64,000 nucleotides of DNA from IMG/VR virus record IMGVR_UViG_3300033402_000312, one strand, 5' to 3'. The translations under genes were made by a program, and so were the position numbers. This document shows, in pieces, positions 18,237 to 60,370 of this stretch. Each line of letters opens with the position of its first letter. The first letter of the stretch is position 1. The notes beneath the pieces were generated by a model. It made no database searches and had not been told where the DNA came from. It saw nothing but the letters and a program-made list of their open reading frames with translations. The DNA comes from a virus.

Positions 18237-18266
18237 TGGACGATTTCCCGGCTCCGCCTGTATACT
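18237..18266 (+). promoter_or_regulatory. conserved promoter motif TGGACG-N18-TATACT with upstream cacataaaa box
   Basis: tggacg 18237-18242; ctgTATACT 18258-18266. Confidence 0.5.
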
Positions 18267-18434
18267 ACAGGCGAGGAAACGATCCATGGCTACCGACCAA
18301 CGTCAGGCACCACGTTACGGCTCCGGTGAGCGAGTCCGCAGCGCCCAGCGATTGCGCAGGGAAGTCATGGTGACGCAACCTCCGCTTGCCCCGGCGATAC
18401 GACTGTAAGGATCAACCGGGCTAAAGGAGAGCAA

Positions 18435-18668
18435 ATGAAGTTCAAAATCTTTGAGGGCAGCGCCATCCGTGACGTGTACGAGAAGGTCAAGACAGCGGAC
18501 GGGTTGGGCACGACCCTCCAAAAAGTTGGAATCGAGGAGTACACCTTCGTTGTCGAGATCGACGAGCATAGCCTTCGCGCCATGGGCGGACGCGCCGCCC
18601 GCAACAAGAACGGCAGGGCTGTTCGCGGCGGCTTGGTGGCGAGGGTCACGAACCGGAAGAAATCGTAA
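18435..18668 (+). CDS. hypothetical protein
   Basis: AAAGGAGAG RBS; 77 aa. Confidence 0.4.
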   Translation: MKFKIFEGSAIRDVYEKVKTADGLGTTLQKVGIEEYTFVVEIDEHSLRAMGGRAARNKNGRAVRGGLVARVTNRKKS

Positions 18669-18879
18669 GGCGTCGAAGAGGCAAAAAGCATCTAACGAAT
18701 ATGATTGATGTCAACCACCTGTTCACGCTGCACCGCACCTACACGGGTCTCGGCTGCGCCATCTGCGGCAAGGGGCCCGAGTCCCATCCGCCCGACCTGT
18801 GGCTGGTAAACGGTGAGAAGAAGGAACCGCCGAAGGAGAAAAATGTCGAACGAAAGGCGACCGCGCCGGGGGAAGAATA

Positions 18880-19401
18880 GTGATGCCGCGACGGCGCTAT
18901 TGCGACGACGAAAAGCCGGACGAGGAAGACTTCTCGAACACCGAACCGGACGAAGAGGACTTCTCGAACACTCGGCAGGAGCCGGAGGACGTCCGCGCTG
19001 CGCCGGGCATCCCGACGCTCTATGAAATCCGCAGGCACATCCACGAGCACGCATGGAACGGCGACGAGTGCCTGCCGTCCATGACGAACGAGCAAGTCTT
19101 CGCCGGGCAATGTGAGTACGCCTCGACCGCGATCTCGGAGATTCTTACCGGGACAGGCAAGAACGGCAAGCCTGTGGACTGGAACCTCCGTGTGCGGGGG
19201 TGGTATACCGGCGACCTCGGTGGGATCAGGAGCCGCTACGGCTGCGACGGGCATGTTGCCAATGGCAAGCACTGCCACTCATGGGTCGAGCACGGCGGTA
19301 AGATCATCGACGCGACGTGGTGGCAATTCGCTGGGGGCGAAGTCCGGGTCTACGTGTTCGAGTTGGGAGACCCCCGGTTTGTTAGGGACGAAAGCGCATG
19401 A
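18880..19401 (+). CDS. hypothetical protein with tandem PDEEDFSNT repeat
   Basis: 173-aa ORF; DNA-level 27-30 nt tandem duplication. Confidence 0.45.
   Translation: MMPRRRYCDDEKPDEEDFSNTEPDEEDFSNTRQEPEDVRAAPGIPTLYEIRRHIHEHAWNGDECLPSMTNEQVFAGQCEYASTAISEILTGTGKNGKPVDWNLRVRGWYTGDLGGIRSRYGCDGHVANGKHCHSWVEHGGKIIDATWWQFAGGEVRVYVFELGDPRFVRDESA
18916..18972 (+). repeat. ~30-nt tandem repeat encoding PDEEDFSNT x2
   Basis: seen directly. Confidence 0.7.
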
Positions 19402-19610
19402 CCTATCGAAAGTCTGATTTGCGCGAAGGGCAGCATTGGGACGAGGTAGGCTCGGCTGTTGTGAACGCCCGGAGTCGAAAGATCGTGGTGCTCGGGACGA
19501 AACAGTTGACTTACGAGGACGAGTCCGGCAGGGGACGAACGGTCTTGATCGCCTCGTTCTTGCGGTGGGCACGGACTTTTGCAGAGTGCCGTCCGAAAGA
19601 TAGTAATTGA
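19398..19610 (+). CDS. hypothetical protein
   Basis: ATGA overlap with upstream ORF. Confidence 0.35.
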   Translation: MTYRKSDLREGQHWDEVGSAVVNARSRKIVVLGTKQLTYEDESGRGRTVLIASFLRWARTFAECRPKDSN

Positions 19611-19844
19611 CAGTTTTCGGAATTTCGGGTATATACAGGTGTGGGGCGGTATCAGCGCCCCGCCCGTGAATCGGTGACGACCCTGCTAAGGGGTGCGCAC
19701 CCCAAGTTGCCGAGGATTGGAACAGTCCCCGTTTCAAATGCAGGGACAACCATGGGGTTTGAACCGGGGCATAACGGCAAAAAGAGGTATGGGGCTGGGT
19801 GCTGGTAGTCCCAAGGAGGGCGAAGGCACCCAGCCCGTTGTCTC

Positions 19845-19873
19845 TTGACAAGATTCGGACTTTGGGATACTAT
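19845..19873 (+). promoter_or_regulatory. sigma70-like promoter TTGACA-N17-TACTAT
   Basis: ttgaca 19845-19850, 17-nt spacer, tactat 19868-19873. Confidence 0.55.
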
Positions 19874-19874
19874 A

Positions 19875-20006
19875 GTGACATGAATCGCATACCCGCATTA
19901 TCGTCCTCCAGTAGCTCAGCAACGGGCTGGGGCGAGGGTGTGGGCGCGTAAGCAAGACGCAAACACAGAGTTCGCAGCCAGCCACCGGGAACGGTGGCTT
20001 TTTTGT
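19875..20006 (+). ncRNA. candidate small RNA / structured leader between promoter and intrinsic terminator
   Basis: promoter at 19845 and terminator at 19981 bracket ~130 nt with no credible ORF. Confidence 0.3.
19981..20006 (+). terminator. rho-independent terminator
   Basis: gccaccg-ggaa-cggtggc hairpin followed by tttttt. Confidence 0.7.
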
Positions 20007-20013
20007 TTTACAC

Positions 20014-20107
20014 GGAGAGATGCCAGAGAGGCTGATCGGGGCGGTTTGCTAAACCGTTGTGGGAGCTAAAACTTCCACCGGGGGTTCGAATCCCCCTCTC
20101 TCCGCCA
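20014..20107 (+). tRNA. tRNA-Ser(GCU), type II, CCA encoded
   Basis: acceptor ggagaga/tctctcc, T-arm ggggg-ttcgaat-ccccc, anticodon loop ttGCTaa, long variable arm. Confidence 0.75.
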
Positions 20108-20108
20108 C

Positions 20109-20200
20109 GGAAGGGTTGGTACATTGGCAGGTCCGGCTGTCTCGAAAACAGTTACGGGGCGCAAGCTCCGTTGCCCGTTCGACTCGGGTCCCTTCCTCCA
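20109..20200 (+). tRNA. tRNA-Ser(CGA), type II, CCA encoded
   Basis: acceptor ggaaggg/cccttcc, T-arm gcccg-ttcgact-cgggt, loop ctCGAaa. Confidence 0.65.
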
Positions 20201-20345
20201 AGTTTAGATCGCAGCGGTGTTGGATACAGTTACTTCGGATAAACACAACCGGCGCGAGCCGGGCGTGCAAGTCTGGGTTCGAATCCCAGCGACCGGGCGC
20301 AAGCCCGGTGTCAACTGTGCCGCTTGTTCCCTGCGATTCAGTTTT

Positions 20346-20435
20346 GGAGAGTTGGCCGAGTGGACGATGGCGCTCGCTTGGAAAGCGAGTATCCTCGAAA
20401 GGGGGTCGCGAGTTCGAATCCCGCACTCTCCGCCA
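20346..20435 (+). tRNA. tRNA-Ser(GGA), type II, CCA encoded
   Basis: acceptor ggagagt/actctcc, loop ttGGAaa, disc G. Confidence 0.7.
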
Positions 20436-20436
20436 G

Positions 20437-20528
20437 GGCGAGGTTGGTACATGGGCAGGTCCGGCGCTCCCGAAAAGCGTTACGGGGCTGACGCTCCGTT
20501 GCAGGTTCAACTCCTGTCCTCGCCGCCA
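20437..20528 (+). tRNA. type II tRNA, Ser(CGA)-like with C33
   Basis: acceptor ggcgagg/cctcgcc, T-arm gcagg-ttcaact-cctgt, loop ccCGAaa (C at position 33). Confidence 0.5.
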
Positions 20529-20533
20529 AATTT

Positions 20534-20619
20534 GGAAGGTACTGCCGAATGGTTGGCAACTAGCCTTGAAAGCTAGGGCGTCCGAAAGGACGGGCGTTCG
20601 ATTCGTCTATCTTCCGCCA
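20534..20619 (+). tRNA. tRNA-Ser(UGA), type II, CCA encoded
   Basis: acceptor ggaaggt/atcttcc, D-stem tgcc/ggca, anticodon stem ctagc/gctag loop ctTGAaa. Confidence 0.7.
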
Positions 20620-20646
20620 AATTTCAGGTATTAGCCGTAGTAATTC

Positions 20647-20735
20647 GCGGGAGCAGCCCGATTGGCCGGAGGCGGCGGACTTAAAATCCGTTGGGAGCAA
20701 TCCCTTTGTGAGTTCGACTCTCACCTCCCGCACCA
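20647..20735 (+). tRNA. tRNA-Leu(UAA), type II, CCA encoded
   Basis: acceptor gcgggag/ctcccgc, disc A, loop ctTAAaa, T-arm gtgag-ttcgact-ctcac. Confidence 0.7.
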
Positions 20736-20740
20736 AATTC

Positions 20741-20829
20741 GCTGGTGTCCGTTGGCACGGGGAACCGTTTTATAAACGGTTGCCCTAGATCGGGGCTTCC
20801 ATAGGGTTCGATTCCCTACACCAGCACCA
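20741..20829 (+). tRNA. type II tRNA with anticodon UAU (unusual; Ile(UAU)-like or noncanonical)
   Basis: acceptor gctggtg/caccagc, disc A, anticodon stem accgt/acggt loop ttTATaa, 21-nt variable region, T-arm taggg-ttcgatt-cccta. Confidence 0.5.
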
Positions 20830-20922
20830 GTTCTTCCTTCCTCAAATTTCCCCTCCGGTATTCTACTCACGTGGTAGCATGGGTGAGCAACGCTTATGCG
20901 GGCATCAACTAAGAAGGGGCAC

Positions 20923-21378
20923 ATGAACAAGCTAGAACTGGAAATGGAACGTCGGGAATCCGCCGAGAGGGCGTCCGTCGCGGCCAGCCGCAGGACTGAG
21001 GAAGCCCATGCGAAGAGGGAGCAGCGTCAAAAACGCCTCTTCGAGCGCAAGGAATTCAACCGCCTGTTCGGTCGCCTGAGGAAGATGGTGGACGGGCGCT
21101 GGGACCGCCACGGCTGGGGATGGACGTTCAAGTACAAAGGCAAGGAATACTGGATCAGCTACGATAGCTGGTCCAGCCCCAAAACGCCGGGCGATGCGGA
21201 TGACTACGACATGTCCGGCACGCATTGGGTTCTCAAGAACCACTTCAGCGCCTCGGAGGGAGACAACGGCGCATACAGCTTGGGCGACGGCGTGGGCAAG
21301 ACTGGGCTGACCGAGGAAGTGCTGAGAGGCTTGGGGGAACTGACCAAGCGCGGCGGTCGCCGGAACGAAAGGCGATAG
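20923..21378 (+). CDS. hypothetical basic protein
   Basis: AAGAAGGGG RBS before ATG 20923; Arg/Glu-rich N-term. Confidence 0.4.
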   Translation: MNKLELEMERRESAERASVAASRRTEEAHAKREQRQKRLFERKEFNRLFGRLRKMVDGRWDRHGWGWTFKYKGKEYWISYDSWSSPKTPGDADDYDMSGTHWVLKNHFSASEGDNGAYSLGDGVGKTGLTEEVLRGLGELTKRGGRRNERR

Positions 21379-21383
21379 GGCTA

Positions 21384-21581
21384 ATGCCTGAGCGCTATTG
21401 CCAGTACGACGTCAGCGTGTGGCCTTCGCACGGCTACCTTTCTGAGTACGACCCCGCCCGCTGCTGCGGAAAAGCCGCCGTGTTTACCCTGCCCACGGAG
21501 GAAGAGTACCCCAACCGCCCGGCACTGAAGGTGTGGGTCTGCGCCGAGCACTATGACGAGTGGTTTCAGGTTCCCTGTTGA
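21384..21581 (+). CDS. hypothetical Cys-containing protein
   Basis: 66-aa ORF. Confidence 0.3.
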   Translation: MPERYCQYDVSVWPSHGYLSEYDPARCCGKAAVFTLPTEEEYPNRPALKVWVCAEHYDEWFQVPC

Positions 21582-21670
21582 TGCTGGTGCATTGCGAGCG
21601 AATGACCCGGTCTTAGCGTCTTGTGGTAGCATCTAATTAGTGACCCACTGAGGCACAAGGAGACTCTCTT

Positions 21671-22354
21671 ATGTTCCGCAGAATCTTGGCAACAGCAGTT
21701 CTGGTACTGGCAACAGGCTGCGCAGCGCAGGCGCAGGAAGTCATCATGAATCAGCCGAGCGCAGACATCGTCAACAAGGGGCACGCCTTCGTTCGGTTTG
21801 ACGAGTTCTACACCCAGACTCCGGCTTTCTACCAAGAGAACCTGAACTTGGCTGTCGGTCTCGGCCATAACCTTGAAGTCTCCCTGAACAATACGAACGC
21901 TTTCAACCGCTCCCCCGTTTCCGATTCCTTGGTGCTGGGCTTCAAGTACGCCCCGGTAAAGACAAAGAACTTCGAAATCTATGTCGGTGACCAGTTCGTT
22001 CAGCCCCTGACCAACAAGACCTTCTCGCAAGGCGACATCGCCTACGAGGCGGTGGCGTACAGCACCCATGGGTTCCGATTCACGGCGGGGTCGTTTCAGT
22101 CGCACAACGGCGTGCAGCTTGGTAACCGGGCAGGGGCTATCGGCGGCATTGAATACACGAAGAACATCTCCAAGAACTGGGCAATCGGGCCGGGCGTGGA
22201 CTACGCCTCCGGCGCGGGCACCAACGGTTACATTTCGCCGGGGCTTAATTTCATGTACAAGAATTTCTTTTTCTGCCCCGGCTACATGATCGGCAACCCG
22301 CACAACCCGAACGGCGCTCACCAAAGCTTCATCATGGCGGGGTATACTTTTTGA
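21671..22354 (+). CDS. putative outer-membrane beta-barrel protein (OmpW/OmpA-like porin family)
   Basis: signal peptide ending LATGCAAQA; alternating beta-strand pattern; C-terminal ...MAGYTF (terminal Phe). Confidence 0.5.
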   Translation: MFRRILATAVLVLATGCAAQAQEVIMNQPSADIVNKGHAFVRFDEFYTQTPAFYQENLNLAVGLGHNLEVSLNNTNAFNRSPVSDSLVLGFKYAPVKTKNFEIYVGDQFVQPLTNKTFSQGDIAYEAVAYSTHGFRFTAGSFQSHNGVQLGNRAGAIGGIEYTKNISKNWAIGPGVDYASGAGTNGYISPGLNFMYKNFFFCPGYMIGNPHNPNGAHQSFIMAGYTF

Positions 22355-22617
22355 TGAGGTTCCTAGTGATGGGATTCCTAGACCAAATCGACAGGGACAG
22401 CTTGGTTTGCACGTTCTGCGGCAAGAAGCCTGTCGTAGCTTGCACCGCCTCCATTGACGCGGAGATCGACTCAACGGCCGAAAGACCGGCCCGCTACGAG
22501 TTAGTTGAAAACAGCATCATCGCAACATGCAAGGAGCACGTATCGATCCTTCAGGAGCAGTTCGAGAAGGACGTCGAGGGCGCAAAAGCAATTTGGTACG
22601 CGGTGGACGATGACTGA
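22351..22617 (+). CDS. hypothetical protein (paralog of next gene; CxFCG...CKEH motif)
   Basis: 88 aa; shared motif with 22610 ORF. Confidence 0.4.
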   Translation: MMRFLVMGFLDQIDRDSLVCTFCGKKPVVACTASIDAEIDSTAERPARYELVENSIIATCKEHVSILQEQFEKDVEGAKAIWYAVDDD

Positions 22618-23349: not shown

Positions 23350-23353
23350 ATGC

Positions 23354-24078: not shown

Positions 24079-24079
24079 G

Positions 24080-25762: not shown

Positions 25763-25792
25763 CCGGACAATCCCCCCTGCCTGCCTGTATAC
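25763..25792 (+). promoter_or_regulatory. conserved promoter motif CGGACA-N18-TATACT (extended -10 TG)
   Basis: cggaca 25763-25768, tgTATACT ending 25792; ATG 25809 follows. Confidence 0.5.
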
Positions 25793-25808
25793 TATGGCTG
25801 GAGGGATC

Positions 25809-26012
25809 ATGGCTTGCAGACTCAGCGGTTTCAACGTCAAGGCGTGGGAAACCATCCAGCACCGAGGGCATGTCGTAGAAATCGCCTCCGCCACAACTAA
25901 GGGGATGAAGCTGGGCGGCGTTGTCTTCAAGCTGGACGGTGTGTTCCAAGGCTTCACAGGCACCAAAGATGCTGCCATCTACTGGGTCAACGAAAAACTC
26001 AATGCCCATTGA
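25809..26012 (+). CDS. hypothetical protein
   Basis: first ATG after conserved promoter. Confidence 0.35.
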   Translation: MACRLSGFNVKAWETIQHRGHVVEIASATTKGMKLGGVVFKLDGVFQGFTGTKDAAIYWVNEKLNAH

Positions 26013-39814: not shown

Positions 39815-39890
39815 AGGGGATTGGTCTAGCGGCTACGATGCGCGTCTCCAAAACGCTGCGACGGGGGTTCGAGTCCCTCATCCCCTGCCA
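39815..39890 (+). tRNA. tRNA-Trp(CCA), CCA encoded
   Basis: acceptor aggggat/atcccct, loop ctCCAaa, T-arm gggggttcgagtccctc. Confidence 0.7.
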
Positions 39891-39912
39891 AGTTTTTGAA
39901 GGGAAGGAAGTT

Positions 39913-40543
39913 ATGGAACTGAGGTCAGGGGCTTCTCAAGCGCGAGGTACCCGCATCCTGCGGGGGGAGACGGCTGCCCGGAGGCGTCTTCATCTCGTCT
40001 AGCCTTGCGCAGAGGGCGACGGAAGCCGGGTACGAGGAGTTCGTCCTTCCGTCGCTTGAGCTTGCCGCCATGTACGCGGAGAAGGCGGGGGATGAGGTTC
40101 TGGGGCAGATGTACACGTTCCCGGACAAGAAGGGCAGGCTGCTGTGCCTGCGACCGGAGGGGACGGCGACGTGCCAGGTGCTCGCCGACACGGCGCTGAA
40201 GTCGGAGCGGGACGTGAGGCTCTGGTACCTGGCGACCTGCTGGCGCTACGAGCGGCCGCAAGCCGGGCGCTACCGGGAGTTCTTGCAGTTCGGCGTGGAG
40301 GTCCTGAACCCGCGCCGGGGCGTGCGGGACGAGCTTGTGGCGCTGGCCGAAGGCATGGTCGGAATGTTCACCGACCGCTATGAGGTGAGCAGGGCTGTGA
40401 AGCGCGGGCTGGCGTACTACGTCGAGGACGGCTTCGAGATAAGCTGCCCGCAGCTTGGCGCTCAGAAGCAGGTCTGCGGCGGCGGGTCGTACAAGCAGGG
40501 ATGCGGCTTCGCGCTCGGCGTGGATCGGCTGATGCTGGTTTGA
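39913..40543 (+). pseudogene. hisS-like (histidyl-tRNA synthetase class II core) remnant, frameshifted and internally shortened
   Basis: N-term fragment MELRS..RGTRILRGETAA stops at 40002; second frame carries motif 1 LRPEGTA, motif 2 CWRYERPQAGRYREFLQFGVE, motif 3 CGGGSYKQGCGFALGVDRL; insertion and anticodon-binding domains absent. Confidence 0.45.
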
Positions 40544-40570
40544 GTTTCATGCCGTAGTGCATGACACTAC

Positions 40571-40644
40571 GGTGGGCGTAGTTCAGTTGGGAGAACGCCC
40601 GGCTGTGAACCGGGAGGTCGCGGGTTCGAACCCCGCCGCTCACC
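40571..40644 (+). tRNA. tRNA-His(GUG) with genomically encoded G-1, no encoded CCA
   Basis: G-1 pairs with discriminator C73; acceptor gtgggcg/cgctcac; loop ctGTGaa; T-arm gcggg-ttcgaac-cccgc. Confidence 0.75.
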
Positions 40645-40689
40645 CTTTCGTGACTTCCTGAGTATTAAGTAGAGTGCTCAGGAAGGTTC

Positions 40690-41517
40690 ATGATGCTTTA
40701 CACCGTGTACAAGACGGTGAATTTGACGAACGGCAAGTACTACTTCGGCGTCCATAAAACGGACGACCCGGATGACGACTACCTCGGTTCTGGGGTATAC
40801 ATCAAGCGAGCCGTTGCAAAGTACGGGGAACAGAACTTCCGCAAGGAAGTGTTGTTCATTTATCTTGATGCGGAGTCGGCGTTTAAGAAAGAAGACGAGT
40901 TAATCCAGTGTTATCGAGGCAGGGACCCGTTGTGCATGAATCTAAAGAATGGAGGGAGAGGTGGCTATGACTGGATCAATAAAAACGGGTTAAATGGTGC
41001 GAAAGTTGCGCATCTCCCAAATGTAGAGCAACAGCGGCGACGGACATTCGGTAAAAGACTTAAGACCGACGAAAATTTTCGACGTCAAGTTGCCGAACGA
41101 GCAAAGCACGCGGCGCAATTTGTAAAAAATGAGAGCCGCTTGGAATCATTAAAGCAGGCGACAATCGCAGCAGCGAACGCAAATACGGGCAGAAAACGCT
41201 CCTCGGAATTCAAGCATAAGATTTCTGCCGCGCAGCGAGGGGGTAGGTGGGTACACCAAGGAAGAAATAAACGTCGAGTTGTCCAAGAAGATTTGCCAAG
41301 ATTTTTGAAAGAGGGCTGGCTGTTTGGACAAAAAGACAAGCCGTCGCTTAAGACCCGAAAATTAAGTAAAGCTCAAACAGCTTTCGCGGGGACACGTTGG
41401 TGCTGGGGGCATAAAGATTTTTTACCTCTTAACGCTTTTGATGGCGCAAATCGGTTGTGTAGGCTTTGCAGGAAAAAGCGGCGAGTTTTACGCCGCCAAG
41501 AGTTGGGACATTGGTAA
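40690..41517 (+). CDS. GIY-YIG homing endonuclease
   Basis: N-term YTVYKTVNLTNGKYYFGVHKT...YLGSG GIY-YIG motif; lower GC than flanks; sits between tRNA genes. Confidence 0.7.
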   Translation: MMLYTVYKTVNLTNGKYYFGVHKTDDPDDDYLGSGVYIKRAVAKYGEQNFRKEVLFIYLDAESAFKKEDELIQCYRGRDPLCMNLKNGGRGGYDWINKNGLNGAKVAHLPNVEQQRRRTFGKRLKTDENFRRQVAERAKHAAQFVKNESRLESLKQATIAAANANTGRKRSSEFKHKISAAQRGGRWVHQGRNKRRVVQEDLPRFLKEGWLFGQKDKPSLKTRKLSKAQTAFAGTRWCWGHKDFLPLNAFDGANRLCRLCRKKRRVLRRQELGHW

Positions 41518-41527
41518 TTTGATATAG

Positions 41528-41604
41528 GCGCGTGTAGCTCAGTTGGACAGAGCGCTACTCTGCGAAGGTAGAGGTCGCTGGTTCGAATCCAGTCACGCGC
41601 ACCA
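41528..41604 (+). tRNA. tRNA-Arg(GCG), CCA encoded
   Basis: acceptor gcgcgtg/cacgcgc, D-arm gctcagttggacagagc, loop ctGCGaa. Confidence 0.65.
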
Positions 41605-41611
41605 AGAGATT

Positions 41612-41689
41612 GCGCCTGTAGCTCAGTTGGACTAGAGCGTTCGCCTCCGAAGCGAAAGGCCGCGAGTTCGAGTCTCGCCAGGCGCACCA
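41612..41689 (+). tRNA. tRNA-Arg(CCG), CCA encoded
   Basis: acceptor gcgcctg/caggcgc, anticodon stem ttcgc/gcgaa loop ctCCGaa. Confidence 0.7.
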
Positions 41690-41859
41690 AGTTCGAGAGC
41701 AGTCCCGGCGCTGGCCGTGCGCAGCACGGATCAACGCCGCCGATGATTGGGGTCTGGTGCCCGAACCATCTGTGATACTCAACCGGACTAGGCGCGTTGC
41801 CGCTGGCCCAAAGTGGACGTCCACGGAAGGAGTCACGTGAGAGAGGGCTGCCTGAGTTT

Positions 41860-41937
41860 GCCGGGTTAGCTATTGGACATGGCAGCACGTCTTCGAAACG
41901 TGCAATTTAGCGGGTCCGAATCCCGCACCCGGTTCCA
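41860..41937 (+). tRNA. tRNA-Arg(UCG), CCA encoded (6-bp anticodon stem)
   Basis: acceptor gccgggt/acccggt, anticodon stem gcacgt/acgtgc loop ctTCGaa, T-arm gcgggtccgaatcccgc. Confidence 0.55.
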
Positions 41938-41943
41938 AGATTT

Positions 41944-42020
41944 GCCCCCGTAGCTCAGCGGAACAGAGCGGCACGCTACGAACGTGAAGGTCGGCGGTTC
42001 AAATCCGTCCGGGGGCACCA
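41944..42020 (+). tRNA. tRNA-Arg(ACG), CCA encoded
   Basis: acceptor gcccccg/cgggggc, loop ctACGaa. Confidence 0.7.
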
Positions 42021-42179
42021 AGGTTAGTACGAACATCAAGCCTGATTAAAGACGGTTGCTTTGAACGAGTAAAAAAGGAAGTAGTAAAGTGTGATGTGCG
42101 ATGTGCTAACTGTCACAGACGCCGCACTGCAAAGCAACAAAAACATTTTTGGCTAGAATTTTTAGCAACGAAAGTTTGA

Positions 42180-42255
42180 TGGGGTGTGGTCCAATCGGTA
42201 GGACGCTCGGCTGTTAACCGAGACGGTGTGGGTTCGAATCCCACTGCCCCAGCCA
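42180..42255 (+). tRNA. tRNA-Asn(GUU), CCA encoded
   Basis: acceptor tggggtg/tgcccca (U1), D-stem gtcc/ggac, anticodon stem ctcgg/ccgag loop ctGTTaa. Confidence 0.65.
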
Positions 42256-42362
42256 GCTTATGAAGTGGATTGCCCAAGCCCTGCTGAAGCGGATCGGCGC
42301 GTATCTGAATAACAAGCGCGGATTGACTTGGGCCGAGGCGAAGAGGTGGTATATCGTCATCA

Positions 42363-42381
42363 CCCCCCTTGCGGGGGTTTT
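42363..42381 (+). terminator. putative intrinsic terminator
   Basis: cccccc-ttgc-ggggg followed by tttt. Confidence 0.45.
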
Positions 42382-42422
42382 GAGGAAGGGAGCAAAGGCG
42401 TAAATTTGCAGAAGAGTTCTGA

Positions 42423-42497
42423 TCCTCGGTAGCTCAATGGCGGAGCAGGCGGCTGTTAACCGCAAGGTTGCAGGTTCAAGTCCTGCCCGAGGAGCCA
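42423..42497 (+). tRNA. tRNA-Asn(GUU), CCA encoded
   Basis: acceptor tcctcgg/ccgagga (E. coli-like U1), loop ctGTTaa. Confidence 0.7.
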
Positions 42498-42502
42498 AGT
42501 TT

Positions 42503-42577
42503 GGGTCTGTAATTCAGCGGCTAGAAGCCCTCGCTCTTAACGAGGTAACGAGAGTTCGAGTCTCTCCAGACCCACCA
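42503..42577 (+). tRNA. tRNA-Lys(CUU), CCA encoded
   Basis: acceptor gggtctg/cagaccc, anticodon stem cctcg/cgagg loop ctCTTaa. Confidence 0.7.
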
Positions 42578-42594
42578 AGTTTTTGTGATACCAT

Positions 42595-42671
42595 GGGCCG
42601 CTAGCTCAATTGGTTAGAGCAACTGCCTCTTAAGCAGAAGGTTCCCGGTTCGAGTCCGGGGCGGCTCACCA
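42595..42671 (+). tRNA. tRNA-Lys(CUU), CCA encoded
   Basis: acceptor gggccgc/gcggctc, D-arm gctcaattggttagagc, loop ctCTTaa. Confidence 0.7.
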
Positions 42672-42686
42672 AGATCGGAGAGGAAG

Positions 42687-42857
42687 ATGCTGAAGCCCAA
42701 CGGTGATTTTGATTTAGACGGAAAGCCGGTCATGCCCGATGTGGTTGTCGCCGGACTCATCCCCAACGAGGAGGGGCAAAACGATGTCGAGGTCGAACCT
42801 GCCGGGGTCGAACCCGACGATGACGACCTCTTCGTGGACTACGGCGGCGAGGGATGA
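42687..42857 (+). CDS. hypothetical small acidic protein (56 aa)
   Basis: GGAGAGGAAG RBS then ATG 42687; not in ORF track (below 60 aa). Confidence 0.35.
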   Translation: MLKPNGDFDLDGKPVMPDVVVAGLIPNEEGQNDVEVEPAGVEPDDDDLFVDYGGEG

Positions 42858-42901
42858 CAAGTTTTTGGGTATTAGGATTCTTAGGATAGGAGGTCGAAGA
42901 C

Positions 42902-43447
42902 GTGCCTGACGTACTGATTCTCGACATGAACTACCGCCCTGTCGGTTTCGCATCGTGGCAGGACGCGGTCAAGAACATCTGGAAGGACCGGGCTGTCGTC
43001 ATCAAGGAAGACGAGGACGGCAAGATGCTCCATTCCCCGTCCTTCGAGATGGGCATGCCGAGGGTGATCCGCGTCCGCAACGCGTGGGTGAAGCGGCGCA
43101 AGACCTCCGTCCCGTTCTCGCGGCGCAACCTTTACGTCCGCGACAGCGGCGAGTGCCAGTACTGCGGCAGGCACCTCAAGCTGGACGAGTACACGCTCGA
43201 CCACGTGGTGCCGCGCTCGCAGGGCGGTATCTCGTCCTGGGCGAACATGGTCCTGTCCTGCATGCGCTGCAACAAGCGCAAGGCGGGTCAGACGCCGGAG
43301 CAGGCAGGGATGCCTCTCTTGCAGAGGCCAATCGTCCCGAAGGTGGACGATCCGAAATATAATTTCAAATTGCACATTCGGAAGCTCCGCCCCGAGTGGA
43401 AGGAATGGGAGAACTTCCTGTACTGGAACATCGAGTTGGATAAATAG
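42902..43447 (+). CDS. HNH endonuclease
   Basis: CQYCGRHL...LDHVVPRSQGG...SCMRCNKRK. Confidence 0.75.
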   Translation: MPDVLILDMNYRPVGFASWQDAVKNIWKDRAVVIKEDEDGKMLHSPSFEMGMPRVIRVRNAWVKRRKTSVPFSRRNLYVRDSGECQYCGRHLKLDEYTLDHVVPRSQGGISSWANMVLSCMRCNKRKAGQTPEQAGMPLLQRPIVPKVDDPKYNFKLHIRKLRPEWKEWENFLYWNIELDK

Positions 43448-43494
43448 GTAGACAAGCCTCGGGGAGGACGATAACCTCCCCGAGCAAAGATTGC

Positions 43495-43572
43495 GGCCCC
43501 GTAGCTCAGCGGAACAAGAGTAGCGGTTTCCTAAACCGAAGGTCGTGCGTTCGAATCGCACCGGGGCTACCA
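43495..43572 (+). tRNA. tRNA-Arg(CCU), CCA encoded
   Basis: acceptor ggccccg/cggggct, loop ttCCTaa, T-arm gtgcg-ttcgaat-cgcac. Confidence 0.65.
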
Positions 43573-43577
43573 AAATT

Positions 43578-43775
43578 ATGATGTCAGCCGACATTTTCGT
43601 CTGGAAGTGCATCGTCTGCGGGCATAGGGTCATGACGCAGATGGACCTCCATGTCAACGACCGGCCGATCTGCGTGGAGTGCAATGCGGAGATGGAGCCA
43701 GTGAGGAAAGACCCCGAACTCGGGGAGCGCATCATGAGGATATGGGAGCGGCTGGTTCCCGGCGCACAGATTTGA
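43578..43775 (+). CDS. hypothetical zinc-ribbon protein
   Basis: CIVCGH...CVECN. Confidence 0.35.
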   Translation: MMSADIFVWKCIVCGHRVMTQMDLHVNDRPICVECNAEMEPVRKDPELGERIMRIWERLVPGAQI

Positions 43776-43779
43776 CTTT

Positions 43780-43854
43780 TGGGAGATCGTACAATCGGTA
43801 GTACACAGGTCTCTGGAACCTGTTATGGCGGTCCGAGTCCACCTCTCCCAGCCA
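43780..43854 (+). tRNA. tRNA-Gln(CUG), CCA encoded
   Basis: acceptor tgggaga/tctccca (U1-A72, disc G as in E. coli Gln), anticodon stem caggt/acctg loop ctCTGga. Confidence 0.65.
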
Positions 43855-43899
43855 AGCTTTCGGAACAGCCATGTGACTCTGGTGTTGAGCGGCGACAGC

Positions 43900-44079
43900 A
43901 TGAGCGGGTGCAAGAAGCACGGTCCCGGCGTTTGGCGCAGCGACTGCGAAGAGTGCCGCACGGCCCCGGTGCCGCAGCACGAAACCGATGTGATCCTGAC
44001 ACCGTCCTACTGCAACGGCTGCAAGTATGGCAGCCATTGCTTGGGCGCTGACCCGGACTGCGCATGCGGCTGCGAATAA
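43900..44079 (+). CDS. hypothetical Cys-rich protein
   Basis: MSGCKKHGPG...CEEC...CNGCKYGSHC...CACGC; start approximate. Confidence 0.3.
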   Translation: MSGCKKHGPGVWRSDCEECRTAPVPQHETDVILTPSYCNGCKYGSHCLGADPDCACGCE

Positions 44080-44109
44080 AGCTAGACAACGCCACGAAGT
44101 TGCGGTAGA

Positions 44110-44292
44110 ATGGGAGAGATGAACTCTCCGCTGAAGACGATCCTGAAGGTCACGGCTGCGGCGCTTGTACCGGGCATAGCGATCTACTTGCTGGCGAGCA
44201 TGATCCTGAGGGAGAACGAGAAGAAGGAATTCAAGAGGTATATCTACAACACCTACGGAGAGGGCAGCAAGTATGTTGACACCTACTATTGA
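44110..44292 (+). CDS. hypothetical small membrane protein
   Basis: single TM helix. Confidence 0.35.
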   Translation: MGEMNSPLKTILKVTAAALVPGIAIYLLASMILRENEKKEFKRYIYNTYGEGSKYVDTYY

Positions 44293-44389
44293 TTACAGCG
44301 CTCTTGCGACGATGGCGCTCGGCGTCTGCGCCCTCTGCCTCTGCCTTGCCTACCCTGCGCCACGAAGAAAACGCTGACCACATCCCTGC

Positions 44390-44465
44390 GGGCCGTTACG
44401 TCAACGGCTAGACTACTCGCCTTTTAAGCGATGGAATCTCGGTCCAAATCCGAGGCGGCCCACCA
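44390..44465 (+). tRNA. tRNA-Lys(UUU), CCA encoded
   Basis: acceptor gggccgt/gcggccc, loop ctTTTaa, T-arm ctcgg-tccaaat-ccgag. Confidence 0.65.
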
Positions 44466-44470
44466 AATTT

Positions 44471-44547
44471 GCCCCCGTCGTCCAACGGAATAAGGACACT
44501 GGCCTTCTAAGCCATGGATGCGGGTTCGATTCCTGCCGGGGGTACCA
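44471..44547 (+). tRNA. tRNA-Arg(UCU), CCA encoded
   Basis: acceptor gcccccg/cgggggt, D-stem gtcc/ggac, loop ctTCTaa. Confidence 0.65.
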
Positions 44548-44553
44548 ATTTTT

Positions 44554-44629
44554 GGGAGGTTAACTCAATCGGTAGAGTGCCCGGCCTTTAACCGGAACGT
44601 TGTGGGTTCGACTCCCATGCCTCCCACCA
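44554..44629 (+). tRNA. tRNA-Lys(UUU)-like with C33
   Basis: acceptor gggaggt/gcctccc, D-arm actcaatcggtagagt, anticodon loop ccTTTaa (C33), T-arm gtgggttcgactcccat. Confidence 0.5.
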
Positions 44630-49108: not shown

Positions 49109-49130
49109 ATGAGGACAGTATTATCGAGGT

Positions 49131-49631
49131 ATGGGCTTCAGCAGAAACGCTTATCGGGAAAATAGACGGAATAAAGGACTTTGTAGAGATTGTGGGGAGA
49201 AAGCACGTAAAGGTCTATCTCTATGTGAGGCGTGCGCAAAGTCCGCTTATAAACGAAATGTAAAGCGTTCTGCTAACTTTAAGAAAAGGGGGGTCTGCAT
49301 AACGTGCGGGCGAAAAGTCGTAAAAGGCAAGGCACGTTGCGCACAACACCTACTTTATACCCGTATTTGCAATTTGCACCTGCCGCGCAAAGAAAGACCA
49401 CGTGTTGCTGCGGCACTCCGTGAGTTTGCTGGATACTGTGAATGTTGCGGCAGAAGCAAACCTGGTGGAAACAACCAGTGGAATATCGACCACAAAGGGT
49501 CAAAATTTCGTGGTATATTATGTTGGTACTGTAATATTGTACTTGGGCTTGTTTACGACAATACAGCAACACTGAAGGCGATGATCAAATACCTCCGAAA
49601 AACACGGCAGGGGAGGAAGGACAAGCCATAA
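49131..49631 (+). CDS. endonuclease VII-like HNH nuclease
   Basis: low-GC gene; CRDCGEK...CEAC...NIDHKGSKFRGILCWYCNIVLG pattern. Confidence 0.6.
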   Translation: MGFSRNAYRENRRNKGLCRDCGEKARKGLSLCEACAKSAYKRNVKRSANFKKRGVCITCGRKVVKGKARCAQHLLYTRICNLHLPRKERPRVAAALREFAGYCECCGRSKPGGNNQWNIDHKGSKFRGILCWYCNIVLGLVYDNTATLKAMIKYLRKTRQGRKDKP

Positions 49632-54434: not shown

Positions 54435-54435
54435 T

Positions 54436-54693: not shown

Positions 54694-54728
54694 ACAACGC
54701 GACTACAAGCCTCTCTCGTAGGTGCCCT

Positions 54729-55097: not shown

Positions 55098-55116
55098 ACT
55101 CTGCTATCATGGGTCA

Positions 55117-55419
55117 ATGCGAAAACCATTCTTGATTTCCAGCGTGCTTGTCGCTGTGCTCCTTGTCCTCTTCGGATGCGAAGACCTGACCGTCGTCCGG
55201 CGCACGCCTGCGGGCGTCCGGCAGGAAACCCGCTCGATGTCGTGCAGCTACCCCGGTTACTGCTACGGCATCGACGGCAAGTTCGGCTTCCACTACGACT
55301 GCGACGGCAGCCGCGACGCGGTCGTGAGCGTCCAAAGCTTTGTCGTCCGCTACAAGAGCGGGCGCATCGACACGGAGGAGCAGGTCACGGTGGTACGCTA
55401 CCTGACGGACTGCAAATGA
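55117..55419 (+). CDS. putative lipoprotein
   Basis: MRKPFLISSVLVAVLLVLFGC. Confidence 0.45.
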   Translation: MRKPFLISSVLVAVLLVLFGCEDLTVVRRTPAGVRQETRSMSCSYPGYCYGIDGKFGFHYDCDGSRDAVVSVQSFVVRYKSGRIDTEEQVTVVRYLTDCK

Positions 55420-55439
55420 GACGATAAACGTGAAACAAG

Positions 55440-56436: not shown

Positions 56437-56442
56437 CCGAGC

Positions 56443-56472
56443 CGGACATTTTCCCTTCCTTTGCTGTATACT
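56443..56472 (+). promoter_or_regulatory. conserved promoter motif CGGACA-N18-TATACT
   Basis: cggaca 56443-56448; tgTATACT ending 56472; ATG 56497 follows. Confidence 0.5.
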
Positions 56473-56496
56473 GGGGATGCGAAGAAGGGAAGGCTA

Positions 56497-58808
56497 ATGA
56501 AATTCGAATCCGAGAAGTCACCCACCGCGACATCCGGCATGCAGCCGAGCCGGGCTTTCCATTTCGAATTCAACGCAACGATGTTCAAGATGCTGTCCAG
56601 CACCACGTACTCGGACCCCATCCGCGCCATCATCCGCGAGCTTGCCTGCAACTCCTCCGACGCGCACGAGATGGCTGGAACCAACGGCAAGCCCTTCGAA
56701 ATTCACCTGCCCACAATCCATGAGCCTGAGTTCATCATCCGCGACTACGGCACGGGGATGAACGACGGGGAGATCAACGACCTCTTCACCATGTACGGCG
56801 GGTCGAACAAGCGCGGCGACAACCGCACCATCGGCGCTCTCGGCATCGGCTCCAAGTCCCCCTACGCGTACACCCAGATGTACAACGTGACGGCTACCAA
56901 GGACGGCGTCACGCGCACCTACGTCGCGCACGTCGAGAACGGGATGCCGCGCCTTACACCGGACAAGGTCTACGAGACGCCGGACGCGCCCAACAGCGTG
57001 ACCGTGCAGTTCCCGGTCAAGGAAGGCGACATTTGGGAGTTCGAGAACAAGGCGAAGATCGCGCTCGAATTCTTCGAACCCCTGCCGAGGGTCAACGTCC
57101 CCGGCTTCGTCCCGCACAAGCAAAGCTACATCCTCCGGGGCAAATTGTGGGGACTCCGCAGGGAAGCGCGGACGGCAGCGCACGGCTACACCTGCCGCGC
57201 CATCATGGGCAAGGTGCAATACCAAGTCGGCGGCATCGACGAGTCCCGCACCAATTCTTTGCAACGCAAGATTCTGGACATGCCCATCGACATGTTCTTC
57301 GCCCTCGGCGAACTGGAATTCGCGACGAGCCGCGAGACGCTCCAGCTTTCCGAAAAGACGGTCGCCGCCATCCTAGCGATGTGCGACAAGATCGTCGAGG
57401 AATCCATCCAGAGCGTTAAGGACAAGATCGACGCCTGCCAGCACGTATGGGAGGCGCAGGTTCTCCTGTTTTCGCTGATAAACCAAACGTCCAACTCCGT
57501 CAGCGGGAACGGCATGAGCGCCCTCATCCGCGAGGCGCTTGACAAAGGCAAGCTGTACGGCAAGTACAAGAACTTCGACTTGTCCGAGTCGAAGGCAGTC
57601 ATCAACATGCTGGCGTACAGCCACATCAGCGTGACCAAGTTCGAGCGCAACGCCAGCAGCCGGAGGCGTTCCACGAAGGTACCTTTTATTTCGACGGACG
57701 CCAAGACCCTGCGCGACGACAAGGCAGCAGCCAAGGCTACCGGAGACCCGCTGGTGATCGCCCGCAACCGCTACGAAATCACCGTCAAGCCGGACGTGCT
57801 ATTCGTGATCAACGATACGAAATACCCCGGCGACAAGTACGTTCACATGCACGTCCAGGAGTCGCCCGCCAACCATACTTTTCGCGAAGTCTACCTGATT
57901 CACAAGCCGAAAAGCGAGCCGGGCACCGACCTTGCCCTGACGGTCAACAACGCCAAGAAGCTGATCGCCCATATCGGCAACCCCCCGGTCAAGCTGATGT
58001 CCGAACTGGTCGCCGCCTATGCTCCCATCTTCGCGCAGCGCCGCTCGGCAGGCTCCTCGTCCAAGGCGCGGCAGATTGCCGTGCTGGTGGACGAGATCGG
58101 TCACCGCCGCCGCTACAACCAGAAAGGCTGGGGAAAGGCGTGGCGCTCCCCGAGCGAAGAAGAGATCGCCGCTCCCGGCAAGAAGTATTACGTCGCCATC
58201 GAAAAGCTGGTCGCGGTTAGCGCTAGGTTTGACGATGCTTGGGATTTGCGCGAGTTCGTGGACATGGTCGCCGCGTCCGGCAAGTTCGGCATCGACCGCA
58301 ACACGCCAATCTACGGCGTGAAGCACAACCACAAGGTGCTCAAGGAAAACAACGGCGAATGGGTCGAGCTTGTCCACCATGTGTACAGGCGCGTGGGCGA
58401 GATCATGACGCCGGAAAAGACCATGGCTGCCAGCCTGTACCTGACGCCGTTCAACGACGACCTGCTCGACCTGCTGAACCACCTTGCATCGAAGCAGCCG
58501 CTTGCCAACTCGCCGTTGCAGATGTTCGCGGTGGCGCTGTCCGAGGCGAAGAGCTACAAGATCGACAACTGTGGAGCAGCCTCAAGTGGGTGCTCGATTT
58601 TTGCGCCCGGCGCGGCAAGTACACCGAGGGCAAGACCGTGGACTTCAACGAGAAGTTCATGCAGGTCAAAGCGATGTACCCCATGCTCCAGTTCGTGGGA
58701 AGCTACAGCCTCCGCAGCAACCTCAAGACCTTGGTAGACTACATCCGGCAAGTGGACGAGCAAAATTTCAGGGAAGCCGTTTGCTTTGCGGCGGCATCCA
58801 ACCAATAG
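56497..58808 (+). CDS. GHKL/HATPase_c-domain ATPase (rIIA-like); 3' end requires a -1 frame change near 58565
   Basis: N-box IRELACNSSDAH, G-boxes IIRDYGTGMNDGE...GALGIGSKSPYAY; frame A runs to 58737 but becomes low-complexity after ...KSYKIDN, while frame -1 continues as LWSSLKWVLDF...AASNQ to 58808. Confidence 0.55.
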
Positions 58809-58819
58809 GAGAAAGAGCC

Positions 58820-60181
58820 ATGTCACTAAGCTACGCTTTGAAGGGAAACAACCTGTCGGTCGCTGTGACCGACAAAGAGACCGGGCTGCCCGTGTGGAGG
58901 ACGATGCACTCCTCGCACGTATCGTTCAAGAGCATTGTCCGCGCCCTCAAGAGGGGCGACGACGCCAAGGCGCTCCGGCTGTTCGACACGGCGCAGCTTA
59001 TCGCCGACAAGTCGCAGGGGCGCGTGCAGGTGCGGAAGGACGGCGTCTACTACAACGGCACCAAGATCGACAACTCCCTGACCGTCCGCATCCTCCGGCT
59101 TATCCGCGAGGGCAAGCCCGTGAGCCACATGCTCAAGTTCATGGACAGGCTCTACCAGAACCCCTCGCAGGCGGCCATCGACGAACTGTACGACTGGCTG
59201 AACGGCTGCAAGCTGCCGATCACCGACGACGGGCGCTTCGTCGCGTACCGCCGCGTCAAGAGCAACTACAAGGACTGCCACACGGGCACCATCGACAACA
59301 GCCCCGGTCAGATCGTCTTCATGAAGCGCTCCGACGTGTGCCCCGACCGCCGCAACACGTGCGCACAAGGCTTGCACTTCTGCTCCGTCGCGTACCTGCC
59401 GAGTTACCCCGGCGACCGCGTCATGCAAGTGGTCGTTGACCCCGCCGACGTCGTGAGCATCCCGAGCGACTGCGAGTACACCAAGGGCCGCACGTGGCAG
59501 TACGAAGTCGTGAAGGAAATCCCCCGCGAGCAGATCACCGACTTGCTCGACCGGGGCATGGACATCGACGATTACCGCGTCTCCGTCTACAGCATCGCCA
59601 GCGACCGCAAGAAGCTGGTCGCGGACATTCTTGCGCTGCCCATGGTCAAGTCCATGTTGCGCAAGGCGAAGAAAGTCCGCCGCATGAAGCGCGGTCGCAA
59701 GGCAAAGAGCGTCGCATTCCTCGTCTCCGAGCGCAGCATCCGCAAGATGACCTACGGGCGGCTCGTGAGCCTGTACAAGGTGTACGCGCCGCCTGAGCCG
59801 ACTACGCTCTCGCAAGGCATGTTCTTCGACCCGGTCACTGAGCAGAACCGCCTGTTCACAATGCGGAAGTCCTACGGCTTCTCTCGCGGTCAGGTCGCTG
59901 ACCAAATGAAGGTGAGCTACGGCACTGTCGCCAGATACGAGTCGGCGGTTTCGCTGCCGCAGGCAACCATCGACGAATACCTTGACGCCATCATGTGCCT
60001 GTCGCGCCTCGGCGCAACCGACCAGACCGGGCTGTCGCTCCCGAAGCCCACGCAGAAAACGAGTGCGGCTGCGGCTGACGGCGGCTCACTCAATGACGTA
60101 CCGGAAAGCGACGCGCCGGAAAGCTGGACGGTGGACAACGACGAAGAAGAGATCGACGAGTTCGGCTACGAGGATGCCTGA
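58820..60181 (+). CDS. hypothetical protein with C-terminal XRE-type HTH (possible rIIB-like partner)
   Basis: AGGAGAAAGAG RBS; conserved-looking core NPSQAAIDELYDWL...DNSPGQIVFM...CAQGLHFCS...DRVMQVVVDPADVVSIP; C-term GQVADQMKVSYGTVARYE. Confidence 0.45.
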   Translation: MSLSYALKGNNLSVAVTDKETGLPVWRTMHSSHVSFKSIVRALKRGDDAKALRLFDTAQLIADKSQGRVQVRKDGVYYNGTKIDNSLTVRILRLIREGKPVSHMLKFMDRLYQNPSQAAIDELYDWLNGCKLPITDDGRFVAYRRVKSNYKDCHTGTIDNSPGQIVFMKRSDVCPDRRNTCAQGLHFCSVAYLPSYPGDRVMQVVVDPADVVSIPSDCEYTKGRTWQYEVVKEIPREQITDLLDRGMDIDDYRVSVYSIASDRKKLVADILALPMVKSMLRKAKKVRRMKRGRKAKSVAFLVSERSIRKMTYGRLVSLYKVYAPPEPTTLSQGMFFDPVTEQNRLFTMRKSYGFSRGQVADQMKVSYGTVARYESAVSLPQATIDEYLDAIMCLSRLGATDQTGLSLPKPTQKTSAAAADGGSLNDVPESDAPESWTVDNDEEEIDEFGYEDA

Positions 60182-60340
60182 ACGGAATAGGGGCACCTTC
60201 CCTTCTTCGCAGAGAGGAAATGCCCTTGTAGCCGGGAAGCTTGAGGCGGGCTGTTTCGGGAAGACCACATTCTCTAAATGCCTGACAAGGGTTTCCCGGC
60301 TTTGTTTCCTACAAGTCGTTGATTATTGGGCACATAAAAC

Positions 60341-60370
60341 TGGACATTTGGCGCATCCAATCTGTATACT
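60341..60370 (+). promoter_or_regulatory. conserved promoter motif TGGACA-N18-TATACT
   Basis: tggaca 60341-60346; tgTATACT ending 60370; upstream cacataaaa box shared with the 18237 copy. Confidence 0.55.

Follow-up and report, generated by a model that had tools for sequence, protein, structure and literature searches.

Copies of the element in the 64-kb window

The stretch of viral DNA analysed here, 64,000 nucleotides (nt) of the IMG/VR record IMGVR_UViG_3300033402_000312 (hereafter the window), carries five copies of the octamer TGTATACT, all of them intergenic and on the + strand, on which nearly all genes of this genome lie. At four of the copies the hexamer (T/C)GGAC(A/G) stands exactly 16 nt upstream, so that the whole has the layout of a promoter with a -35 and a -10 box. 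The window has a GC content of 58% and encodes rIIA, rIIB, a Ku-like protein, a DNA ligase, an AAA ATPase, an OmpA-domain protein and a methionine aminopeptidase (MAP). The copies and two further candidates are listed below (SD, Shine-Dalgarno sequence; ORF, open reading frame).

2820-2849, + strand: variant -35 hexamer TAGCCA (2820-2825), a 16-nt C-rich spacer and TGTATACT (2842-2849); CTGTATACT spans 2841-2849
18237-18266, + strand: TGGACG (18237-18242), N16, TGTATACT (18259-18266); the whole element (18208-18266, +) begins with the upstream box AAA-N4-TGATT followed by CACATAAA (18208-18234)
25764-25793, + strand: CGGACA-N16-TGTATACT, then SD GGAGGG and the ATG at 25809 of a 67-aa gene (25809-26012)
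56443-56472, + strand: CGGACA-N16-TGTATACT, 60-nt gap before rIIA (ATG 56497), with rIIA (56497-58737) and rIIB (58820-60181) downstream
60341-60370, + strand: TGGACA (60341-60346), N16, TGTATACT (60363-60370), then SD GGAGGA and ATG 60391; the whole element (60313-60370, +) includes AAG (60313-60315), TTGATT (60319-60324) and CACATAAA (60331-60338); behind it lie Ku (60391-61428) and a 79-aa GerE/LuxR-type helix-turn-helix (HTH) protein (61598-61837)
22341-22348, + strand: possible weak member of the class by its sequence, GGTATACT without a recognisable -35 hexamer; ATG 22354, 5 nt on, opens an 87-codon ORF
16526-16560, + strand: TTGAAA-N5-CACATAAA-GGTCGATT-C-TATACT, in our own reading of the sequence a likely relic of a promoter of the 18.2/60.3-kb type, with most of the spacer gone and the G before TATACT missing

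The five sites are as the initial annotation described them, the second alone needing other coordinates (25764-25793 rather than 25763-25792). The 2.8-kb copy, which it had taken for a -10 box only, has TAGCCA at the standard 16-nt distance, and its statement that each copy lies 20-30 nt upstream of a ribosome-binding site and ATG has to be replaced: TATACT is followed by ATG after 19, 15, 24 and 20 nt at the four full sites, each with a GGAGG-type SD, and after 6 nt without an SD at the 2.8-kb copy, where ATG 2856 opens a 165-aa gene (2856-3353) whose mRNA is predicted to be leaderless. A sixth promoter copy lies 3.8 kb past the end of the window (position 17381 of locus L069), and the 25.8-kb copy is unchanged in a variant strain (L073).

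The 18.2- and 60.3-kb copies align over about 100 nt, SD and ATGGC included. The upstream TTGATT...CACATAAA box that the two had been reported to share (18215-18234 and 60319-60338) is real, with 4 matches against 0.65 expected; MAFFT gave no convincing alignment of the 16526-16560 element with the promoter copies. The SD (GAGGAAA) and ATG (18286) that follow the 18.2-kb copy lead only into a 40-codon ORF, the next called gene starting at 18435 and a tRNA array at 20014. This ORF (18286-18408) is Arg-rich (MATDQRQAPRYGSGE...), and an otherwise unrelated locus (L044, 10925-11000) has a counterpart stretch, DQRQATKFGQGE, likewise behind a promoter, lacking an in-frame start codon and followed by a tRNA; the stretch is either a small protein or a conserved leader.

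Enrichment, strand bias and spacing

Motif counts bear out the recurrence. The five exact copies of TGTATACT in the window, all on one strand, compare with 0.27 expected, and at least five copies were reached in 0 of 100 dinucleotide-preserving shuffles. With up to two mismatches allowed, the composite pattern has 6 matches in the window against 0.77 expected. Because the four full sites show no mismatch and sites with exactly one mismatch are absent, the promoter class is discrete rather than the top of a continuum.

Homologues of the MAP protein with 55-88% identity occur on metagenomic contigs of 325-463 kb, and the window is therefore part of a sizeable uncultivated family of huge phages (about 450 kb). 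Megablast found no close relative among deposited phages, and all matches to the MAP protein in the phage collection were below 40% identity. For the comparisons within the family we used 208 kb of DNA, consisting of the window, a 7-kb extension of it and MAP-syntenic loci, which were chosen via the MAP homologue without use of the motif; family contigs were read in 20-kb pieces. In this DNA the gene strand carries 24 copies of GTATACT and the opposite strand a single one, against an expectation of 2.9 per strand. A YRGHCR hexamer stands exactly 16 nt upstream of the 8-mer at 15 of these 24 copies and at any other offset between 8 and 24 at none (background 0.006 per position). Scanned from the -35 side, the position 16 nt past YGGMCRWW holds either nGTATACT or nothing -10-like.

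When viral contigs were searched with GGACA-N15-CTGTATACT, 68 loci matched. Those of about 55-59% GC have several copies each, likewise in intergenic, gene-proximal positions, and some of them have proteins in common with the MAP-defined family. Among 185,579 bacterial and archaeal genomes the strict motif gave 9 scattered single matches and no enriched taxon. No host group is known to use the motif, given that its strict form is nearly absent from these genomes; a pattern this strict would seldom match ordinary host promoters anyway. One perfect match to the strict motif lies at positions 124-154 of locus L079, on a 967-kb contig (59% GC) of an Acidobacteriota metagenome-assembled genome (CAVRYY010000002.1), and has the typical T-tract after the -35 hexamer and AC after the 8-mer. 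This contig has no protein in common with the family loci and no RNA gene was found near the match, which may have arisen by chance, serve as a host promoter or be left over from a phage. A literature search for TGTATACT found nothing relevant.

Conservation in front of orthologous genes

The phages compared differ widely (55-88% MAP identity, 44-65% GC), and the spacers and flanks of their promoters are essentially unalignable. The boxes are nonetheless kept 5' of rIIA in 6 of the 6 phages for which the region was available, with GTATACT retained at the orthologue promoters of L074, L075, L093, L101 and L170, as well as 5' of Ku in 7 of 7 phages and 5' of a small 'NRF' protein in 3 of 3. GTATACT columns are invariant in the alignments, and six Ku promoters also keep the upstream AAG-N4-TGA unchanged. 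In distant relatives the first base of the 8-mer is altered (CGTATACT and GGTATACT, the latter being the norm in L101 and L093) and the -35 hexamer fades (TATCCA, TAGCTG), GTATACT being retained.

Counted over all loci, 41 non-redundant instances were available. Their -35 hexamers follow TnGnCA. The common ones are TGGACA (14), TGGACG (9), CGGACA (5) and TAGCCA (4), the rest being TGGCCA, TATCCA and CAGACA (2 each) and TAGTCA, TAGACA and TTGACA (1 each, the last in L065). The TAGCCA variant of the 2.8-kb copy is found again in the Ku promoter of L076, in L066 and at the sigma operon of L169. The 8-mer is TGTATACT in 35 instances, CGTATACT in 3, GGTATACT in 2 and TGTATATT in 1, so that the -10 hexamer reads TATACT in 40 of 41 and TATATT in one; the base that follows is A in 28 of 41. 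The first four bases of the spacer are T-rich in 19 instances and A-rich in 11, and the remaining spacer is 44% C.

The genes behind these promoters are all non-structural (rIIA/rIIB, Ku, helicase, DUF932, the sigma operon described below and small ORFs), which fits an early or a middle class without proving either. A copy with class geometry and the canonical TATAAT (TTGATC-N16-TGTATAAT-7 nt-ATG) precedes a tRNA-synthetase-like gene in L170 (2314-2353), and blurs the border between this promoter class and ordinary sigma-70 promoters.

Predicted transcription start and leaderless genes

In about 12 of the 41 instances an ATG without an SD stands 5-6 nt past TATACT and opens an ORF, the longest of 326 aa; in about 21 an SD is present and the ATG lies 13-24 nt past TATACT. 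Leaderless genes are by accepted criteria recognised from a start codon that coincides with the expected +1 and has TANNNT some 12 nt before it (PMC3160421). The short distance at the former group thus points to leaderless mRNAs and to a transcription start about 7 nt downstream of TATACT. The mode differs among orthologues behind the same -10: the Ku gene has an SD in the window, L075, L076 and L087 and is leaderless in L089 and L101, and for the 'NRF' protein L069 and L076 show the SD-led form and L089 the leaderless one. Such switching would be difficult to account for if the -10 box did not set the point at which the mRNA begins.

The sequence evidence makes it very probable that the motif is a sigma-dependent promoter class with transcription starting about 7 nt after TATACT. 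The proposal of the initial annotation that this is a phage-specific class is in keeping with the bipartite build, rigid spacing, strand specificity and intergenic position of the motif, with its retention at orthologous genes and with leaderless ATGs at the expected +1. Its label of extended -10 promoters does not suit the motif: the label is wrong because TG adjoins TATACT directly, and the T varies (C/G/T) in distant relatives, only the G being invariant.

Further -10-like hexamers stand 5-7 nt before start codons in the window (37143-37161, 55105-55119, 44106-44121, 49117-49133 and 22341-22356; TACAAT, TATCAT, TAGAAT, AGTATTAT and GGTATACT), which suggests further leaderless genes, a similar number being expected by chance. 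The 10-mer GTGGTAGCAT, found 5' of both the 20923 and the 21671 gene (~20880-20905 and ~21625-21650), may be another promoter-like element.

A sigma factor operon behind the motif

A local tblastn of the family loci, queried with E. coli RpoE, matched full-length ORFs in two loci at E ~1e-18. The family sigma has 214 aa (~215), with Sigma70_r2 (E = 1.9e-12) and r4_2 present and region 3 absent, and carries the JGI name 'ECF subfamily' (ECF, extracytoplasmic function). Homologues with 45-100% identity are found on family contigs of 458,496, 449,239, 447,784 and 332,300 bp, which include the sources of L074 and L170, and a clear gap separates them from the next-nearest other sigmas (at most 35% identity). 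The gene lies in an operon of the same order in 7 of 7 genomes: first the leaderless gene of a Cys/His-rich protein (~310 aa), next in some genomes a small ORF, then the sigma gene, and last the gene of a ~113-aa protein, the start of which adjoins the stop codon of the sigma gene or overlaps with it. No recognisable anti-sigma domain was found in the ~113-aa protein. A promoter of the TGTATACT class heads the operon in all seven (L048, L024/L027, L168, L169, L171, L172 and L173), and the first gene, being leaderless, would therefore be translated only from transcripts that start at that promoter. The operon coordinates are:

L048, 349-2501: sigma operon
L027, ~3135-4736: sigma operon
L168, 9809-10672: sigma operon
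L169, 8918-11010: sigma operon
L171, 8981-10977: sigma operon
L172, 4866-7032: sigma operon

By tblastn the sigma gene was not found in the window or its 7-kb extension; it is likely to reside elsewhere in the genome of this phage, as it is present in a relative with 79% identity. One candidate for the sigma of the window's own phage, P0125, was set aside, having come from another sample.

Comparison with known promoter systems

The motif resembles sigma-70 promoters in its boxes, which are near TTGACA and TATAAT, in a TAnnnT -10 with T-12, A-11 and T-7, in the A/T-rich DNA upstream of the -35 box and in its position in short intergenic gaps, co-oriented with genes. It departs from them in its 18-bp spacing, in a TGGACA -35 with G or A at position 2, in the essentially fixed C at -8 and G at -13, and in that about one third of the copies give leaderless mRNAs. 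The sigma-S-type -10 (CTATACT; criterion of PMC5758882) is not matched, position -13 being G in all functional-looking copies.

In canonical extended -10 promoters (TGnTATAAT) a single base separates TG from the hexamer. Such promoters share with the motif a TG upstream of a good -10 and, in distant relatives, a -10 region that outlasts the -35, whereas here TG abuts the hexamer with a variable T (T/C/G) and most copies have a -35 at fixed distance. Like the ECF promoters read by B. subtilis sigma-W, the motif consists of a 6-mer, 16 nt and nGTA, with a T-tract after the -35 and close adherence to consensus; unlike them it has a -35 without AAC, a -10 of 7-8 nt that is TAnnnT-like, and its -35 is the weaker box. 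The motif has some defining features of sigma-70 promoters and some of ECF promoters, and appears to lack one of each.

Among phage systems, the likeness to T4 early promoters lies in the position before rIIA and non-structural genes and in a sequence more uniform than that of usual host promoters. The consensus of T4 late (gp55) promoters is TATAAATA at -10 without a -35, and middle promoters have the MotA box TGCTT near -30; neither TATAAATA nor a MotA box is present at the five window sites. The gp36 promoters of phage phiEco32 consist of a single element without a -35, whereas a -35 is present here. Their element is AATGTA, centred at -11.5 (PMC12276001). It resembles ours as a short, highly conserved -10-region element containing TGTA, which in gp36 promoters lies ~2 nt nearer the start; the family sigma and gp36 have no detectable similarity (BLASTP E = 0.12). 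Promoters of leaderless genes (TANNNT) are known from Actinobacteria, Deinococcus-Thermus, Acidobacteria and others (PMC3160421). Our motif is like them in that TATACT ends 5-6 nt before the ATG in ~12 instances, and unlike them in that the same promoter also serves SD-led genes, with orthologues switching mode. Phage promoter classes are already known as a kind; the class of this huge-phage family is new.

Candidate sigma factors for the motif

We tentatively favour, with somewhat less than even confidence, the reading of the motif as an early promoter class recognised by the host primary sigma. Initiation at the motif, the host primary sigma as its reader and the early timing are all three points that we infer. 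Under this proposal, the host RNA polymerase with its primary sigma would recognise an element made up of a -35 hexamer T(G/A)G(A/C)C(A/G), usually a 3-5-nt T- or A-tract, a C-rich spacer totalling 16 nt and nGTATACT, to which some copies add an upstream AAG-N4-TGAWW element near -60. The products would be mRNAs with short leaders (SD and ATG 13-24 nt on) or leaderless mRNAs (ATG at +1). This early class would turn on rIIA-rIIB, Ku, DNA-metabolism genes, small takeover-type ORFs and the ECF-type sigma operon, and the family sigma might then redirect the polymerase to later genes.

Several features suggest such a reader. The hexamers match TTGACA/TATAAT at 9-10 of 12 positions; T-12, A-11 and T-7 are constant, variants changing -8 only (TGTATATT in L168, TGTATAAT in L170); in distant relatives the -10 lasts while the -35 decays; and the genes behind the motif are non-structural. 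The position of the sigma operon behind the motif argues in the same direction, because a phage sigma needs prior transcription by something already in the cell. In phiEco32 the early genes depend on sigma-70, and the middle and late ones on gp36, the sigma of the phage (PMC12276001).

Other features weigh against the host primary sigma. The spacing of the hexamers is 18 bp in every copy and never the 17 bp that sigma-70 strongly prefers, 18 being within the allowed range (17 +/- 1) and at the less favoured end of it (PMC5758882). The second base of the -35 hexamer is G or A and almost never the T favoured by sigma-70, and the invariant G directly before TATACT lies outside the register of the canonical TGn extended -10. 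The near-invariance of the 7-8-mer and the lack of one-mismatch copies in the window are more typical of a specialised sigma, and the 9 scattered strict matches in the 185,579 genomes do not single out a host taxon known to use the motif.

The same promoters may instead be read by the family's own ECF-type sigma, as a middle-class regulon with positive autoregulation of the sigma operon, a possibility that we take seriously and on balance doubt. The regulon would also cover rIIA/rIIB, Ku, helicase and tRNA-proximal units, and to supply the first sigma molecules, either upstream transcripts that depend on the host would run on into the operon or the host sigma would recognise the promoter weakly. 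The family does encode a conserved two-domain ECF-type sigma (~215 aa), and the motif stands directly before its operon in 7 of 7 genomes. A motif before an ECF operon is the standard clue to the target promoter, ECF sigmas being usually autoregulated (PMC7826278).

The layout TGGACA-N16-TGTA is ECF promoter geometry, nGTA beginning 16 nt past the hexamer in every instance. Sigma-W promoters, too, have a spacing of N16. Their elements are TGAAAC and CGTA, and ECF spacers in general range over 14-17 bp (PMC5758882). The invariant G-T that opens the -10 would correspond to the ECF 'CGT' core, and the T-tract (19 of 41) or A-tract (11 of 41) after the -35 resembles the tGAAACnTTTt of ECF promoters, which stay close to consensus (PMC5758882). 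It also speaks for a phage-borne reader that the spacing is never sigma-70's preferred one and that the odd features persist across relatives of 44-65% GC, which a reader carried by the phage itself would more easily explain. The ~113-aa gene overlaps the sigma stop as anti-sigma genes do, and a read-through trigger is conceivable, the sigma gene having its own SD and the upstream genes being co-oriented, with gaps of 40-60 nt.

Against this, AAC, which is typical of the ECF -35 (PMC5758882), occurs in 0 of 41 -35 hexamers. Of the two boxes the -35 is the less well kept, and it weakens in distant relatives; ECF sigmas normally rely heavily on this box. T-12, A-11 and T-7 behave like those of primary-sigma promoters. 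In a lytic phage pure autoregulation cannot start expression and an outside trigger is needed; moreover, no case of a phage sigma driving its own gene is known to us. Genes of the rIIA/rIIB type are immediate-early in T4, which counts against this reading, as do the finding of the sigma gene in relatives and not in the window or its extension, and the lack of a recognisable anti-sigma domain in the 113-aa protein. Lineage-specific drift of the -35 was considered as a sign of co-evolution with a phage sigma and is weakened as an argument, because one genome (L169/L170) uses TAGCCA, CGGACA, TGGACG and TGGACA side by side. The broader proposal that the sigma is a core gene of ~450-kb phages and the motif its self-amplifying, host-independent code, of hybrid sigma-70/ECF architecture, is likewise one that we hold possible and would not yet back.

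No second, ECF-like (AAC...CGT) promoter class was seen by eye in the intergenic regions of the window. A different element, TTAGTTGT-N11-AGTATTA, which has the GTAT core in common with the motif, was seen only before the ribonucleotide-reductase genes of three relatives (L168 5356-5385, L169 5999-6028 and L024 1622-1651).

Operator and RNA readings

It is improbable that the GTATAC box serves mainly as operator for a DNA-binding regulator of the phage, such as the 79-aa GerE/LuxR-type HTH protein, and overlaps an ordinary promoter, so that its invariance would be due to the regulator and not to the sigma. GTATAC is a 6-bp palindrome, the 18.2-kb site lies inside an imperfect palindrome of ~55 nt, a small HTH protein is encoded in the Ku transcription unit, and the conserved AAG-N4-TGAWW near -60 needs a binding partner. 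In the consensus, however, the palindrome ends at 6 bp (TGTATACT-A), and larger inverted repeats are not common to the other sites (z ~0 at 3 of 5); constant distances of 16 nt to a -35-like box and of 6 nt to leaderless ATGs belong to promoter geometry and not to that of an operator. The imperfect palindrome (18237-18291) reads TGGACGATTTCC...CGCCTGTA-TAC-TACAGGCG...GGAAACGATCCA, and the other copies are without such a feature. The 79-aa protein (61598-61837) has weak similarity to sigma-70 region 4 (E ~2e-4) and is, judging from its sequence, a candidate to bind the upstream AAG-N4-TGAWW element.

That the motif acts as RNA, through a hairpin, a processing site or anti-Shine-Dalgarno pairing between spacer and SD that silences read-through transcripts, is very improbable. 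Pairing of spacer and leader is possible at several copies, among them those at 56.4 kb (TTCCCTTC/GAAGGGAA) and 25.8 kb, with duplex energies to -17.7 kcal/mol, and the 18.2- and 56.4-kb sites fold better than shuffles (z = -3.6 and -2.2; the five window sites score 0.13, -3.61, -0.42, -2.24 and 0.31). We reject a role of RNA structure, be it hairpin or anti-SD, because a site's own spacer and leader pair hardly better than mismatched ones (mean -9.9 vs -9.2 kcal/mol; permutation p = 0.105) and folding is no better than in shuffles at 3 of the 5 sites; C-rich spacers are present at leaderless copies too, which have no SD, Rfam matches tRNAs only and not the motif, and the boxes are conserved as sequence, without compensatory change.

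Genomic setting of the phage

The window carries 22 tRNAs in two arrays (20014-20829 and 39815-44629), with HNH and tRNA-synthetase fragments close by, and an 810-aa major-vault-protein-like gene (30843-33275). The sole protein-level relatives of the vault-like protein, LR756500-503, have 24% GC and are without the motif, and the Ku protein used as a probe had no matches in viral contigs. Many of the family contigs at JGI may come, to judge by their names, from peat or bog samples. Leaderless use, set beside the published frequencies of leaderless genes (PMC3160421), would hint at Acidobacteriota-like hosts, which is speculation. A relative with 65% GC encodes NrfD-like, 4Fe-4S and GcvH-like genes (L075 5417-7853) that, going by sequence, may serve auxiliary sulfur or redox metabolism.

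Significance for the family

Huge phages are known almost only from metagenomes. In genomes where ~90% of the genes are unannotated, a family-wide promoter of high information content marks transcription units and a gene class, and the predicted set of leaderless genes informs on the translation apparatus of the host. Together with the ECF sigma operon behind it, the motif offers a sigma-promoter pair that is concrete and open to testing. Read by the phage sigma, the pair would be a compact orthogonal sigma-promoter system and would show ECF-style autoregulation at work in a lytic virus; read by the host sigma, the motif would report the promoter preference of an uncultured host group.

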